A stretch of 64,000 bases of DNA, from assembly GCA_964016885.1 (NCBI GenBank), contig OZ024740.1, positions 298,034,001 through 298,098,000 of the forward strand. Direction: 5' to 3'. Each line of letters begins with the position of its first letter. Position 1 is the stretch's first letter. A program made the position numbers and the translations under genes. This document shows, one piece after another, positions 171 to 58,872 of this stretch. The notes under the pieces are model-generated. The model searched no databases and was not told where the DNA came from. It was given only the letters and a program-made list of their open reading frames with translations. This DNA comes from Eledone cirrhosa (taxonomy: Eukaryota).

Positions 171-485
171 AACGAAGGAAATGTGGTAAGGAACCAGATG
201 GACCATAACGCACCAAAGTACTCAATACTTAGGGTAGTAGAGTGGGTAATAGGAACGAGTAGGACCCCGACGGCTGAGCTCAAGCCGTTTCGACGGCTAA
301 TTCCGGATTGAAAATTCCGGGCACAAAAGAAGGGGACAAATACAAAGGGGGAAGTTTACATACAATAAAAACGTGTAAAATATTATCACAAATGCAATTT
401 AAAAATTAGTCGATTTTCCCCAATAGTCCGGAATTAGCCGTCGAAACGGCTTGAGCTCAGCCGCCGGGGTCCTACTCGTTCCTAT
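171..485. mobile_element. Family A PLE-type terminus, asymmetric inverted pair (long arm 171-309 minus, short arm 425-485 plus)
   Basis: GAGCTCAAGCCGTTTCGACGGCTAATTCCGGA and its reverse complement, flanked by (TA)n; the same unit recurs at least 8 times in the window. Confidence 0.85.
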
Positions 486-504
486 ATATATATATAAATG
501 AAAA

Positions 505-1677
505 TGAGCTCAAGCCGTTTCGACGGCTAATTCTGGACTAAAGGAAAATTTTTATCCTGGTATATGAATAGCCGAGCTTCTCAGGGGGTAATTCCATATA
601 TGGTAAAAGTGATTGTCACAAGGATTGGTCAAAAGTTTGTTGTTGAGACACATAATTCTATCATGGCAATTTGTGGAAGGAAGGGGTAGCTGAACCTGCC
701 AGTAGAAGAAAGAGGGAGAGGGAGTGGAGGAAACCCAGACGTGCGTTGATAGTGCCAACTACAGCAGGGCAGGAGGTCAAGCAAGTATACTAGGGAGGGG
801 GGGGGAGGAAGTCGAAACAATAAGTAAATCAATATGGAGTAAATATATAGAAGAATACCAAGAATGTTAAAAATATAAAATTTCTGGTTACTATTCCCTA
901 ACGACAGTCATCAAGTCTCTCACTGGTACTGCTAAACTATAGAAAAGTTTACTAGGTGGGACGGAATTGTAATGAGACCATTTTAAGAGTTAGTAGTAAT
1001 CAACCGAGTATATCTTACGGTGACAGGTCAACAAGTGGGGGGCCAAAATACTAAAGAAACTACCACGAAATAATAATTCAGAGTCCCGAAACTAATACGA
1101 AATAAATGTTTCTACCCTAGGCACAAGGCCAGCAACCACCCAGTGCAAAAAATAAACTAATACGAAATAATAATTCAGAATCCCGAAAATGAATACTAAT
1201 ACTATCTCTAAGGGTGCCGCTATATTGTTACTCCATATTGATTTACTTATTGTTTCGACTTCCTCCCCTTCCCCCTCCCTAGTATACTTGCTTGACCTCC
1301 TGCCCTGCTGTAGTTGGCACTATCAACGCACGACTGGGTTTCCTCCACTCCCTCTCCCTCTCCCTCTTTCTTCTACTGGCAGGTTCAGCTACCCCTTCCT
1401 TCCACAAATTGCCATGGTAGAATTATGTGTCTCAACAACAAACTTTTGACCAATCCTTGTGACAATCACTTTTACCATATATGGAATTACCCCCTGAGAA
1501 GCTCGGCTATTCATATACCAGGATAAAAATTTTCATTTAGTCCAGAATTAGCCGTCGAAACGGCTTGAGCTCAGCCGTCAGGGTCCTACTTGTTCCTATT
1601 ACCCACTCTACTACCCTAAGTATTGAGTACTTTGGTGCTTTATGCTCCACCTGGTTCCTTACCACATTTCCTTCGTT
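505..1677. mobile_element. Family A element, long inverted pair (505-842 minus; 1228-1677 plus, with complete HHR region and long tail)
   Basis: ~340-bp near-perfect inverted repeat, also visible as duplicated translations in the ORF track. Confidence 0.88.
1489..1584 (+). ncRNA. Family A variant hammerhead (CTGAGAA core, large helix II, GUC site)
   Basis: acccc-CTGAGAA-gct cggcta..tagccg tc-GAAA-cggct tgagctc agccg-TC-agggt (ggggt in most copies). Confidence 0.6.
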
Positions 1678-2849
1678 ATATATATATATTTTATATATAT
1701 ATATATATTTTCAATCACATATATTTTTATTTGTTTGACCCGAATTGCTTGATCGTTTTTTTTTTTACTGTGCGGATGATTAGTTTAACCACCATCTCAG
1801 TGTGTTTGGCCTTTAATGTATGTTGTAGCTCTAATTCATATGAATTATCGAGCACTTGCCACAACTCGGAAGTGTTTTTCGTTAATTCCTGAGCTGAAAT
1901 TCGATTCTCGCTAATTTATATATAATATATATATATATATATATATATATATATATATATATATATATATATATATATATATATATATATATATATATAG
2001 AGTGTGTGTATGTATGTATATATATATAAATATGTGTGTGTATATATGTATGTATGTATATATAGCAATAAATGTGAAGACTAAAATCCGAGAGGGATCG
2101 ATAAGGATTATATATACTAGCAGAAAAATCACCCTTCGGGTGGTTTTCTGTTAGCATGTGTAGTGTGCATATATATATTATATGCAAATATACATGCATG
2201 TAGATGTGATATATCAAATAAAATCGTAATTGACTATATGCACAGAAATTGAAGTAAAGTAATCCATGATACATTTCTGTAAATAAAGTAATCGTGATAC
2301 ATTTTAAAAAGACGATATTATATATAAACTGCATTACGGTGAAATGTAATGCAACCTTATATAACGATGCAAATATATGGATGTTTATATAAACGATGTA
2401 ATAAGTGTTCTGATATAAACAAACGCTAACCAGAAGTGTAGATTTTGAAAATTTTAAAAGAAGTGAATCTTAAAATAAGTAATCATTATATATAAGAATA
2501 TTTATGTTTAATCAACAGCTACGAAATTTAGTAATATTCATTCATTATTTATTCAAAGTAATCTAACTTATTTAACTAACGGGATAAAATTTCTTTAAGG
2601 GTACGCGGGTATGTGGAATGTTTGGCCACTTACTTTCGTAGGCAGGCAGATTCGTTGATTGTATCACAAGAACACTAATTATCGAAACCAACGAAAGTCC
2701 ATTCTATTTACTTCCATAAACGTGTCTACATGTATGAATATGCATAGATGTAAAGAAGACCGTTTACTCCCCAGTCTACTCACCATCAATAACTACCCTA
2801 AACATATATACACGAACATTACACATATATACACTAGATGACAACTACA

Positions 2850-2978
2850 ATCTTCCCATATAAGGAAGTACCCTTGACAAGTTCGGCTATTTATTTACCA
2901 GGCTAAAAATTCTTATTTAGTCCAGAAATAGCCGTCGAAACGGCTTGAGCTCTGCCGTCGGGGTCATACTTTTTCCTA
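2850..2978 (+). mobile_element. Family A diverged copy with complete HHR region and short-type end
   Basis: Homologous to 1470-1598; ends ...TTTTCCTATATA. Confidence 0.8.
2863..2976 (+). ncRNA. Family A variant hammerhead (TTGACAA core, possible U3-A8 compensatory pair, GUC site)
   Basis: aagta-ccc-TTGACAA-gtt cggctattt..aaatagccg tc-GAAA-cggc ttgagctct gccg-TC-ggg gtca tactt. Confidence 0.6.
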
Positions 2979-56510: not shown

Positions 56511-57946
56511 TTTTAGTTTAGCCAATTTCTGATTAGCAATTAATGAAATGCTAGTATTTTATCATACAGATTAGTAGAGAGTTCATCATCATCATTGCTT
56601 TACATTTGCTTTTCTATGTTTGCATGGGATAGATGGGTCTTTTCCAGTATAGCATACCTTCTCTCACTGCATTCCTTCATCAACTCTCACAACCTCTGCC
56701 CAGGTTTTCCTTGGTTTCTTTCTACTACTGAACTTCCTTCCACTGAGATTTCTTAGCAATTCTTCACCCAGCAGTCATCATCCATAGAAATATTTTTCAT
56801 ATTCTCTCAAATCGATAAAGCCCTAGACCCAGATCCCATCAGCCTCCTCCTTCTTCTGACACAAGAGCCCTTGCCTTTCCCATTTTCATAACCACAAAAG
56901 ACACTTGAATATTCAATGTAACTCTACTTTGTGTAGTGGGTACTGTTTTTATTTGCTTATATCATCATCATCATTTAAATGTCCATATTCCACGCTAGCA
57001 TGGGTCTGGATATATGTTCAATATTTGAATAAACATAATTGTATTGTTGTCTATACAGTTTGAATGCAAGGTGGCTTTCATTCATGAATAAACATGAGAA
57101 TTCACTTCCCAAAAAATGTTACAATTAACTCCAACTATATACTCTGTTTGCTATATGGAGAAATCTTTCAGTGACTATTTCTTTGTAAATAAATCCATTA
57201 GCTCATTACTGATACCATTCCTCATCACCACAACCTCTACCACATTTTAACATTCTAGGGTTGATAAAATAAAATAAAATACCAGTTAAGTACTGGGATA
57301 TAATTTAATCAATTATCCCTTACCCCCACACCAACTCCGAATTTATGACCTTTACAAAGTGCACTGGGTGCAGTTATCATGTAGCTCACCAAAACTAGAG
57401 ATGTTGTCAAGCCCTTGAAGCAAATGGAAAGTCCTCTTGACCCTTTTTGGCATGGGTTCTACAGTAAGATGATAATGATGCCTATGCTAGAAACAATAAT
57501 AACAATTATTATTATAGTTTCTGATTTAGGCACGAGGCTAACAATTCTGGGGGGAGGCAAAGTCAATTAAATCGACCCAGTGCGTGACTGGTATTTTATT
57601 TAGACGGCCCTGTAAGGATAAAAGGCAAAGTCAAATCCTGCCGAGGTTAACTTTGCCTTTCATCCCTACAGGGTCTATAAAATAAAGTACCAGTCACGCA
57701 CTGAGGTCGATTTAATCGACTTTCCCCCTCCCCTCAAAATTGCTGGCCTTGTGCCTATATAAGAAACCATTATTATTATTATTATTATCATAACTGGGAT
57801 ACTGGGTTATTGAAAGTTTTATATAATTTGTAAACGAACTATTTTTGTTGAAAGTTTATTTACATAGAGTGCAAGCTTGAGTGGTTAATATTAATTAGTA
57901 ATAGCATTAACACAGCGTGGTTCTCAATAAAGTTGTATACAACTTT

Positions 57947-58045
57947 ATTTGTTTTGTGACAATACGCTTTCCATTCATTCACCGGTCGTAAGCCGTGGCT
58001 CTGTCTTGTTTGTTCAAGGTTAAAGGAAATGACATCACTATTATT
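57947..58045 (-). pseudogene. ~100-bp fragment copy of ALKBH1 coding sequence (source 60246-60356)
   Basis: Near-identical to 60246-60356 apart from an 8-nt and a 4-nt deletion; translates NNSDVISFNLEQT..GLRPVNEWKAYCHKTN. Confidence 0.9.
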
Positions 58046-58690
58046 TATTATATACAATATGTTTGTGATTATTTGTTCTGGCTCTTTCCGTTTCTGAGTT
58101 CAAATCCCACGTCAACGTTACCTTTCATCCTTCAAAGGTTGATAAATTAAAGTACCTGTCAAGTACTGGCGTTCATTGAATCAACTTTGCCTTTCCCCAA
58201 AATTTGCCGGCGTGTACCTAAATTAGAAATCGATATAGTCACAGCTTAAAATACAGCAAGACTATATATGTTTATTCAACACAAATCTGTTTGCGTTTAT
58301 ATGCGACTTTATATATGTATATGCAAAACCAGATTTAGACCGGGGAGGGGGGGGGGGTTAGTTCAGGTTTGGCGAGCCCCACATACATATATATAAGCAG
58401 GAAGAGAAAGGGGCCCTATTCGAAAGGGGGGGGGTACAGTTTGATGAGGGATGCCCTGGGCATTCGCCCCCCCCCCCCCCCCCCCCCCAAATCCACCCCA
58501 GTGTATATGTTTGTTTAGATCGGAATTAAAATATTACGAAACCCTTAACAGATCCCTACCTCATCACCAAACTATATATATATATATATATATATATATA
58601 TATATATATATATATATATATAGAGAGAGAGAGAGAGAGAGAGAGAGAGAGAGAGAGAGAGAGAGAGAGAGAGAGAGAGAGAGAGAGAGA

Positions 58691-58872
58691 AACAAAGAGC
58701 CAGGTAGATTATAACGCACTATAGTACTTGATACTTAAGCTAGTAGAGTGGGTAATAGGAAAATAGTCAGGACCCCGACGGCTGAGCTCCGGCCGTTTCG
58801 ACAGCTAGATCAGTTCGGATCTAGTTGTCGAAACGGCTGGAGCTCAGCCGTAGGGTCCTGACTATTTTCCTA
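58691..58872. mobile_element. Family A' inverted pair
   Basis: Same A' variant; the long arm has an internal deletion. Confidence 0.78.

Follow-up and report, generated by a model that had tools for sequence, protein, structure and literature searches.

Among the major retrotransposition routes, PLE integration is the one understood least. In human L1 twin priming, as Ostertag and Kazazian reportedly described it in 2001, both 3'-OH ends prime RT and yield an inverted structure joined by microhomology, the second primer annealing internally at random and no overlap arising between the two segments. EN+ PLEs leave pLTR insertions in which an inverted, 5'-truncated copy is accompanied by a one-sided tail of 30–40 bp (Arkhipova, 2013, PMC3846280; Craig, 2021, PMC8557442). 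Among the clades with a (TA)n target, Hydra combines a C-terminal EN without the CCHH motif, a length below 3 kb and a canonical hammerhead, and Naiad combines an N-terminal GIY-YIG and a CxC linker with no canonical hammerhead (Craig et al., 2021, PMC8557442). In vitro, the Poseidon PLE cuts and extends both strands, starts RT at two internal sites with the tail lying between them, and uses uncleaved RNA, hammerhead cleavage being dispensable (PMC11167929). This first in vitro PLE system (2024) left the origin of the inverted copies and of the one-sided tail open. Animal non-LTR retrozymes form tandem arrays giving circular RNA, and an origin from PLE pLTRs has been proposed for them (Li, Clavereau and Pollet, 2026, bioRxiv 10.64898/2026.07.22.740005).

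We analysed a stretch of 64,000 nucleotides of Eledone cirrhosa DNA (the window; GCA_964016885.1, contig OZ024740.1, positions 298,034,001 to 298,098,000), in which inverted pairs were located by a k-mer scan, (TA)n having swamped a repeat search on the raw window and self-BLAST having missed tight hairpins. Seven insertions of one repeat, family A, each consist of a long-ended (−) arm and a short-ended (+) arm placed head to head inside (TA)n (see the table), and the window contains 14 copies of the core 22-mer of the family, where 100 shuffles gave none. Long ends read ...CCTTCGTT and lie 98 nt past ...GCCGTC, whereas short ends read ...GTTCCTAT, continue into TA repeats and lie 20 nt past ...GCCGTC, the short end (...TTCCTAT) thus sitting 78 nt upstream of the long one. 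All 17 end coordinates quoted in the original prediction were recovered, with short ends at 485, 2979, 15350, 19267, 44140–44142, 44195 (a minus-strand fragment), 48828, 51306 and 58872, and long ends at 171, 1677, 15116, 19066, 43931, 48615/6, 51101 and 58691. Three exceptions depart from the long-plus-short pairing, namely the solo arm at 2853–2979, the solo fragment at 44195–44235 and the irregular partner (505–1222) of the copy at 1220–1677. No tandem family A copies were found in the window.

Table. Inverted-arm features of the window; reference denotes the copy at 1220–1677.
Feature	Positions	Strand	Remarks
Family A long-ended arm	171–307	−	78-nt tail 171–248; 95.6% to reference positions 162–298; end abuts (TA)n; unrelated 116-nt spacer 308–423 separates it from 424–485
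Family A short-ended arm, partner of 171–307	424–485	+	arms 98.3% alike over 59 nt
Family A long copy, non-coding unit ~830 nt	505–1222	−	outer end irregular, at equivalent of 1573
Family A long-ended arm, coordinate reference	1220–1677	+	hammerhead-like motif 1481–1599; short-end site 1599; tail 1600–1677
Family A short-ended arm, solo	2853–2979	+	U3-A8 hammerhead-like motif 2862–2979
Other-family pair	7108–7479		short-ended 7108–7248 (−), long-ended 7263–7479 (+); tail ~89 nt, 7391–7479
Family A long-ended arm	15116–15255	−	reference match
Family A short-ended arm	15289–15350	+	reference match
Other-family pair	15361–15765		left arm extension ~40 nt (15361–15404); right arm ends short at 15765; read by eye
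Family A long-ended arm	19066–19202	−	reference match
Family A short-ended arm	19207–19267	+	reference match
Small pair	21729–21918		short-ended 21729–21771 (−), long-ended 21786–21918 (+); tail ~96 nt
Large pair	28115–30656		long-ended 28115–28951 (−), short-ended 29932–30656 (+); tail 112 nt, 28115–28226
Second family	32764–33240		short-ended 32764–32967 (−), long-ended 32981–33240 (+); tail 57 nt, 33184–33240
Family A long-ended arm, small internal duplication	43931–44078	−	reference match
Family A short-ended arm	44077–44142	+	reference match
Diverged-subfamily short-ended arm fragment	44195–44235	−	no partner seen; read by eye
Diverged family A subfamily, long-ended arm	48616–48752	−	reference match
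Diverged family A subfamily, short-ended arm	48770–48828	+	reference match
Diverged family A subfamily, long-ended arm	51101–51233	−	reference match
Diverged family A subfamily, short-ended arm	51250–51307	+	reference match
Diverged family A subfamily, long-ended arm	58691–58807	−	reference match
Diverged family A subfamily, short-ended arm	58827–58873	+	reference match

The same asymmetry had been predicted beyond family A, and it recurs in five other families of the window, at 7108–7479, 15361–15765, 21729–21918, 28115–30656 and 32764–33240. Inverted repeats flanked by TA would also suit a DNA transposon, that is, a MITE or foldback element with a TA target-site duplication. This is hardly credible here, as the outer ends are unequal by 57–112 nt, each arm is a 3' part of a longer, unidirectional unit, and the interiors vary by copy whereas MITE copies have a common interior. 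The predicted family B with an ORF-bearing short-ended arm did not reappear, no such arm being identified in the window; its sole RT ORF (7985–9007, minus strand) is LINE-like, with a FADD box, and BLAST found no inverted partner for it in the window.

Genome-wide counts were made as exact pattern matches over 3.0 Gb, for family A and for the unrelated second family (that of 32764–33240). The shared 18-mer of family A marks 20,231 arms and runs on into ATATAT, the short end, in 9,363 and into the tail, the long end, in 8,963; 18,326 arms (90.6%) thus take exactly one of two continuations, and reversed-pattern controls gave 0. The long end falls at the identical homologous base in 59 of the 60 family A pairs fetched. 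One long and one short arm are combined in 6,472 of the 6,625 inverted family A pairs (97.7%), the others being 84 long+long and 69 short+short, and in 4,150 of the 4,324 second-family pairs (96.0%; otherwise 52 long+long and 122 short+short), where random pairing would give about 50%. Each family has exactly two outer end points, sharp rather than broadly distributed as a genome-wide check might have revealed, and almost all pairs hold one of each. This near-obligate one-long/one-short rule is what is new here.

The inner junctions, in contrast to the outer ends, vary between copies, with 56 distinct configurations among the 60 family A pairs and inner ends spread over about 200 nt in the second family. 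Such variation argues against a spread of the pairs as a single preformed MITE-like unit, for which identical shared junctions had been anticipated. A version in which a long+short palindrome arose once per family and was copied whole through a hairpin RNA running from (UA)n to (UA)n, later centre deletions diversifying the junctions, would explain the 96–98% of mixed pairs by inheritance, as well as the abrupt inner boundary of family A near 1535, and a few junction types do recur (L033/L054, L055/L058, L066/L070, L085/L088). We nevertheless regard it as unlikely. Besides the 56 of 60 distinct junctions, 21 of the 60 pairs have one arm at the common limit of 1533–1541 and the other cut elsewhere, which a centre-spanning deletion should rarely yield; some pairs (L002, L008, L012, L028) have arms far beyond the 140-nt class; no arm-specific fixed differences were found at 64 positions; and in pairs L071 and L073 the central filler has a run of A followed by a run of T, as expected if two cDNA 3' ends each bear added A residues. 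More than half of the family A arms stop at 1533–1541 in reference coordinates, and no explanation offered accounts firmly for this stop. Palindrome centres are unstable, and part of the junction diversity could postdate insertion.

Palindromy is nearly perfect at many family A junctions (gap of 0 to −2), and in L092 arms of at least 800 nt meet within 15 nt of the same position. Both features would suit self-priming, in which one cDNA folds back and is copied into the second arm, as proposed for palindromic junctions in the discussion of Arkhipova et al. (2013, PMC3846280). A copied arm cannot exceed its template, yet the short-ended arm reaches further 5' (by at least 5 nt) in 18 of the 60 family A pairs and in 13 of 40 second-family pairs, the long-ended arm being the longer in 14 and 19, respectively. 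With the tail present only on the other arm, each arm of such pairs holds sequence that its partner lacks; filler is moreover present in half of the 60 junctions, and snap-back copying appears quite improbable. The claim that the long arm is no simple fold-back copy is thus upheld for these 18 and 13 pairs, while the family B arm on which it had been based was not recognized.

Within-pair comparison modestly favours a shared template or source for both arms. Second-family arms diverge by 4.35% within pairs and 6.05% between pairs (permutation p=0.0025, 31 pairs), and family A arms by 4.59% and 5.04% (p=0.06, 44 pairs); family A pairs share 3 non-consensus sites against about 1.2 expected, too few to weigh. 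Gene conversion between arms could mimic this similarity.

A hammerhead-type motif lies directly upstream of the family A short end. Its boxes (YUGANAA ... GAAA ... GUC) are compatible with three helices, 94.5% of cells pairing against 22–53% with partners slid, and compensatory changes were seen in 0 of 28 pairs. Of 16 copies, 14 show A8 in the core, 9 have U3 and 7 have C3, and stem II is about 55 nt long; the putative hammerhead of family A is a variant form. Rfam returned no hammerhead or other ribozyme at the gathering score in the whole window, no ribozyme match at E<=10 in 1–3200 and, in ten PLE loci, none at E<=0.1; neither the motif nor the 142-nt template folded into a better minimum-energy structure than shuffles did (z −1.7 and −0.4). 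The weak Rfam matches are microRNA-like and fall on TA repeats and on the hairpins themselves.

The presence of hammerhead-type motifs would accommodate circular or tandem RNA, the two ends then reflecting priming on a hammerhead-processed circle or multimer. Such templates, which the original prediction had entertained, are highly improbable, given that the 3.0 Gb contain a single tail-to-head junction within 0–8 nt but 6,472 mixed pairs, that both ends lie downstream of the GUC site, and that the 5' half of the motif is missing from the numerous ~140-nt arms. For paired RNA templates, also proposed, no evidence was found. The core of that proposal, two priming events on uncleaved RNA, fits the two discrete 3' ends past GUC and matches the in vitro behaviour of a Poseidon PLE (PMC11167929). 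Membership among the non-LTR retrozymes, with tandem hammerhead monomers giving circular RNA, was rejected on the single tail-to-head junction genome-wide.

The structures are short non-coding end-pieces of PLEs and have the known, already published PLE tail architecture. Inverted 5'-truncated copies with outward 3' ends, and a tail on the 3' end of only one of them, characterize EN+ PLEs and are found in family A and the second family; partial tandem copies acting as pseudo-LTRs were not found for family A (one tail-to-head junction genome-wide, 0 tandems in the window). ORFs encoding RT and, C-terminally to it, a GIY-YIG domain are abundant in this genome inside (TA)n, with more than 10,597 GIY-YIG candidates at first look. 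No such ORF lies within the family A copies, the longest unit being about 830 nt and non-coding, and family A would therefore be a non-autonomous passenger. As a counterpoint to the PLE model, an autonomous partner sharing the family A 3' end was not found among the ten GIY-YIG loci fetched, where the only match was 48 nt long and to another repeat. BLAST of the window against fetched PLE loci gave links to neighbouring insertions only, these loci representing other families, and the 3' UTRs of four full-length PLE loci merge into CA/TA repeats, for which reason these loci yielded no clean long/short pair. In three long PLE ORFs the linker is CX4CXXC and two Cys separate GIY from YIG; placed by the description of Craig et al. 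(2021) rather than by phylogeny, these ORFs look Neptune/Nematis-like rather than Hydra; several PLE clades may coexist in the genome. Naiad membership was rejected, since EN is C-terminal in the ORFs examined (three only).

We consider it likely that the pairs are 5'-truncated PLE end-pieces produced in (TA)n by target-primed reverse transcription off both cut DNA ends, from two fixed start points. Copying from one DNA end would begin at the element 3' terminus, and copying from the other at a fixed point within the element 57–112 nt upstream, the extra stretch of the long arm corresponding to the classical PLE tail. The two antisense cDNAs would meet 3' to 3', be joined by microhomology or filler, and each then serve as template for the other strand. 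If both start sites lay on one RNA in one asymmetric, possibly dimeric, complex and each DNA strand used a site of its own, the 96–98% one-long/one-short rule would follow.

Alternatively, a single start site could serve both strands and the one-sided tail be added when EN resolves the intermediate. Craig et al. (2021, PMC8557442) call EN-mediated resolution the most likely source of the tail, and one tail per insertion fits one resolution step. We assign this reading a low probability, as two RT start sites have been mapped at the tail borders (PMC11167929) and the tail is colinear element sequence with a fixed end base. As to the predicted internal priming at a TAT microhomology, the in vitro start sites were reported to have no homology to the cut DNA (PMC11167929); the family A flank here is (TA)n. 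More tentatively than two-site priming itself, we suggest that the two PLE start sites form a fixed pair, each used once per integration and one per DNA strand, by an asymmetric, probably dimeric complex holding a single RNA in two registers; the tail would be the footprint of this arrangement and the inverted copy obligate, at least for short templates.

Taken singly, these structures are ordinary PLE debris. Collectively, they make this genome a record of tens of thousands of integrations that took place in nature from very short templates, with both junctions and the inner joint readable within a single stretch of 100–500 bp. The complementary use of start sites in 96–98% of events is invisible to in vitro bulk sequencing and provides a testable constraint on models of the PLE complex.

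Compared with animal non-LTR retrozymes (10.64898/2026.07.22.740005), the repeats would likewise be non-autonomous and carry a hammerhead-type motif, but family A is inverted rather than tandem and most copies are without a whole hammerhead. As in L1 twin priming, both break ends would prime and the product is inverted; unlike there, priming would use a fixed internal site, and the arms overlap. The likeness to EN+ PLE pLTR insertions (PMC3846280, PMC8557442) extends to head-to-head 5'-truncated copies, a 3' extension on one arm, insertion into (TA)n, a hammerhead-type motif close to the end, and microhomology or palindromes at the inner junction. The tail, however, is 57–112 nt here against the reported 30–40 bp, the copies are non-coding stubs of 50–500 bp instead of pLTR-ORF-pLTR units, and the tail, 'optional' there, sits on exactly one arm in 96–98% of pairs. 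With Poseidon PAc in vitro (Frangieh et al., 2024, PMC11167929) the insertions would share two start sites that bracket the tail, both past the hammerhead-type cut site, as well as uncleaved RNA, cutting and extension of both strands, and an AT-rich target. A counterpoint to the two-start model is that the in vitro sites showed no difference between top and bottom strands and are described as 'adjacent', with a 30–40 nt tail (PMC11167929), whereas here the gap is 57–112 nt and use is complementary. Unlike in Poseidon PAc, the far site coincides with the (TA)n junction and may thus be the RNA's true 3' end region, and where the in vitro reaction has no strand preference, the two sites are used in a complementary manner within one insertion.

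Family A, non-coding sequences that lie as inverted pairs in (TA)n and are probably end-pieces of a Penelope-like element (PLE), is a recurrent component of the window, which has a G+C content of 33% and is dense in (TA)n tracts; its 22-nt core is present in 14 copies, and 100 shuffles produced none. A BLAST search with the sense reference 1380-1677 recovered seven insertions of a single design, in which a minus-strand long-ended arm lies beside a plus-strand short-ended arm. The minus-strand arm extends to reference position 298 (window-equivalent 1677), ending ...CCTTCGTT, the plus-strand arm ends at reference position 220 (window-equivalent 1599), ...GTTCCTAT, and TA repeats directly adjoin both ends. 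All 17 arm ends located in the original prediction were correctly placed. Counted from ...GCCGTC, the short end comes after 20 nt and the long end after 98 nt, so that the extra piece, here called the tail, measures 78 nt. A hairpin scan outside simple repeats, followed by reading of the sequence, revealed a one-sided extension in five other families as well, and in each of them the short end falls at a TA-containing word of the element. A small inverted pair (GGGGACACCCTGT...), whose word also flanks the (TA)n at the long end of a family A arm, may represent yet another such family. The window also holds a LINE-like reverse transcriptase fragment, with no inverted partner within the window, and an oxygenase frame, possibly an exon of a host gene or else a retrocopy.

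Features of the window and of PLE loci fetched from the genome (L-numbers)
Position	Strand	Feature	Detail
308-423		Sequence between arms of first insertion	116 nt unrelated to family A; far longer than usual filler
505-1677		Exception to design	Large composite; left arm with irregular end
1481-1599		Hammerhead-like copy	C3-A8
2853-2979		Exception to design	Solo short-ended arm
2862-2979		Hammerhead-like copy	U3-A8
7108-7479		Other-family extension	~89 nt
7985-8870	-	LINE-like reverse transcriptase fragment	FADD box; stop codon directly against (TA)n
15361-15765		Other-family extension	~40 nt
21729-21918		Other-family extension	~96 nt
28115-30656		Other-family extension	112 nt
32764-33240		Other-family extension (second family)	57 nt
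38325-38524		Assembly gap	200 N
44195-44235		Exception to design	Short-ended fragment
44229-44308, 48590-48602		Small inverted pair	GGGGACACCCTGT...
59340-60518	-	Uninterrupted 392-aa frame	2OG-Fe(II) oxygenase domain (PF13532, E 5e-35)
L101 1775-5062		Long PLE ORF	
L102 4309-7122	-	Long PLE ORF	
L104 4222-6129	-	Long PLE ORF	

Exact pattern counts over the whole 3.0-Gb genome extend this design far beyond the window. The 18-mer just inside the family A short end has 20,231 copies, which continue into ATATAT (9,363) or into the tail (8,963); the two continuations account for 90.6% of copies at a ratio near 1:1, and reversed control patterns gave no match genome-wide. Inverted pairs were counted with 16-nt anchors, within 400 nt for family A and with a gap of at most 500 nt for the second family. 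Family A forms 6,472 mixed (long plus short), 84 long-long and 69 short-short pairs, a mixed share of 97.7% against the ~50% expected if ends were chosen independently. The second family gives 4,150, 52 and 122 (96.0% mixed), where the mixed count takes in a few overlapping matches and the short-short count a related family. Exact-anchored mixed pairs account for ~70% of the arm ends, short and long together, about what we would expect at 2-3% sequence divergence with nearly all arms paired. This near-obligate mixed pairing suggests that two sites on one RNA are used within one asymmetric complex; it goes beyond the cited PLE papers, and no printed account of it was found in the literature searched.

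The inner junctions indicate whether pairs spread as a unit or form anew. Sixty mixed pairs of family A, the first in the matches listed, were compared. In 59 of them the long end falls at the identical homologous base. The combination of arm ends and gap takes 56 different forms; the arms overlap by 1-6 nt in 22 pairs, meet bluntly in 8 and are separated by 1-48 nt of filler in 30. The two discrete 3' ends originally proposed are thus upheld, being neither broadly scattered nor tied to one shared junction. We consider it improbable that a preformed palindrome is copied whole and then loses its centre by deletion: the junctions vary in this way, even though arm ends do cluster at window-equivalent positions 1533-1541 (34/60 long and 35/60 short arms; loci L031-L090), a 9-nt stretch at the AU-rich top of the hammerhead-like motif's stem II. 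The cluster looks as though the template RNA started there; in 21 pairs one arm stops at this limit and its partner is cut elsewhere, and across 40 second-family pairs the inner ends are spread over ~200 nt. Among the fillers are runs of A, runs of T and a run of A leading into a run of T, the trace expected of two antisense cDNAs that bear extra A residues and meet 3' to 3'. The short-ended arm is the longer by at least 5 nt in 18 of the 60 family A pairs (the long-ended arm in 14) and in 13 of the 40 second-family pairs (19), and because it then reaches further 5', each arm holds sequence missing from the other and neither is a fold-back copy, an argument first made from another family. Divergence is 4.35% within and 6.05% between pairs in the second family (p=0.0025, 31 pairs), and 4.59% versus 5.04% in family A (p=0.06, 44 pairs), where long and short arms differ consistently at no position. 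The greater likeness within pairs fits a common template and could also reflect gene conversion between arms.

The best reading of these data is two-strand, two-site priming, in which both nicked strands would prime reverse transcription, the terminal site serving one strand and the internal site the other, before the cDNA ends were joined. Circular templates, as envisaged earlier, and tandem ones are disfavoured, with a single tail-to-head junction in the whole genome.

No Rfam model gave a scoring match at the hammerhead-like motif. An alignment of the longer family A copies nevertheless displays a hammerhead layout, running from helix I (GGAA...CCCC with GGGG...UUCC) through a YUGANAA box, stem II of ~55 nt, GAAA and a 5-bp stem III to GUC; helix I has its 3' edge at the short end. 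Of the cells, 94.5% allow the proposed pairing, a share that drops to 22-53% with partners slid; compensatory changes are absent because the copies are too alike, and this fit makes the motif plausible, though unproven. Of 16 copies, 14 have A8; position 3 is U in 9 and C in 7. U3-A8 is a tolerated natural hammerhead variant. Frangieh et al. (PMC11167929) describe rescue for C3G/G8C only. A C3-A8 core, a predicted mismatch, is found in the long-arm subfamily that has multiplied most (window 1494-1500; loci L001-L030), and its older relatives have U3-A8; spread evidently did not depend on an intact core. The abundant ~140-nt arms start inside stem II and thus lack half of the motif.

GIY-YIG matches are plentiful in the genome (more than 10,597 first-look candidates; all 150 scored were above the cut-off), and the long ORFs, located in (TA)n, encode a reverse transcriptase followed by a C-terminal GIY-YIG domain. 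In those of L101, L102 and L104 the linker is of CX4CXXC type and the stretch from GIY to YIG contains two cysteines; by the description of Craig et al. (PMC8557442) they look Neptune/Nematis-like rather than Hydra. L102 (~4690-5100) and L103 (~4520-4930, both in sense coordinates), full-length PLE copies from different chromosomes, have common sequence past the (TA)n that seems to bound them on the 3' side; either the element runs on beyond a microsatellite within it, or one locus is a duplicate of the other. An autonomous partner of family A was not found among the GIY-YIG/PLE loci compared. Given these ORFs and the published PLE architecture (Arkhipova et al., PMC3846280; Craig et al., PMC8557442; Frangieh et al., PMC11167929), which matches point by point, family A is best read as a non-autonomous PLE passenger; the kind of insertion is already known, and the long/short inverted pairing is a sound and sharp observation. 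In vitro, purified PLE protein cleaves the two strands and extends each of them, hammerhead cleavage is not needed, and reverse transcription begins at two internal sites whose spacing equals the tail (Frangieh et al., 2024, PMC11167929); that endonuclease resolution instead makes the tail seems unlikely to us. The two priming events of the original prediction agree with this in vitro work.
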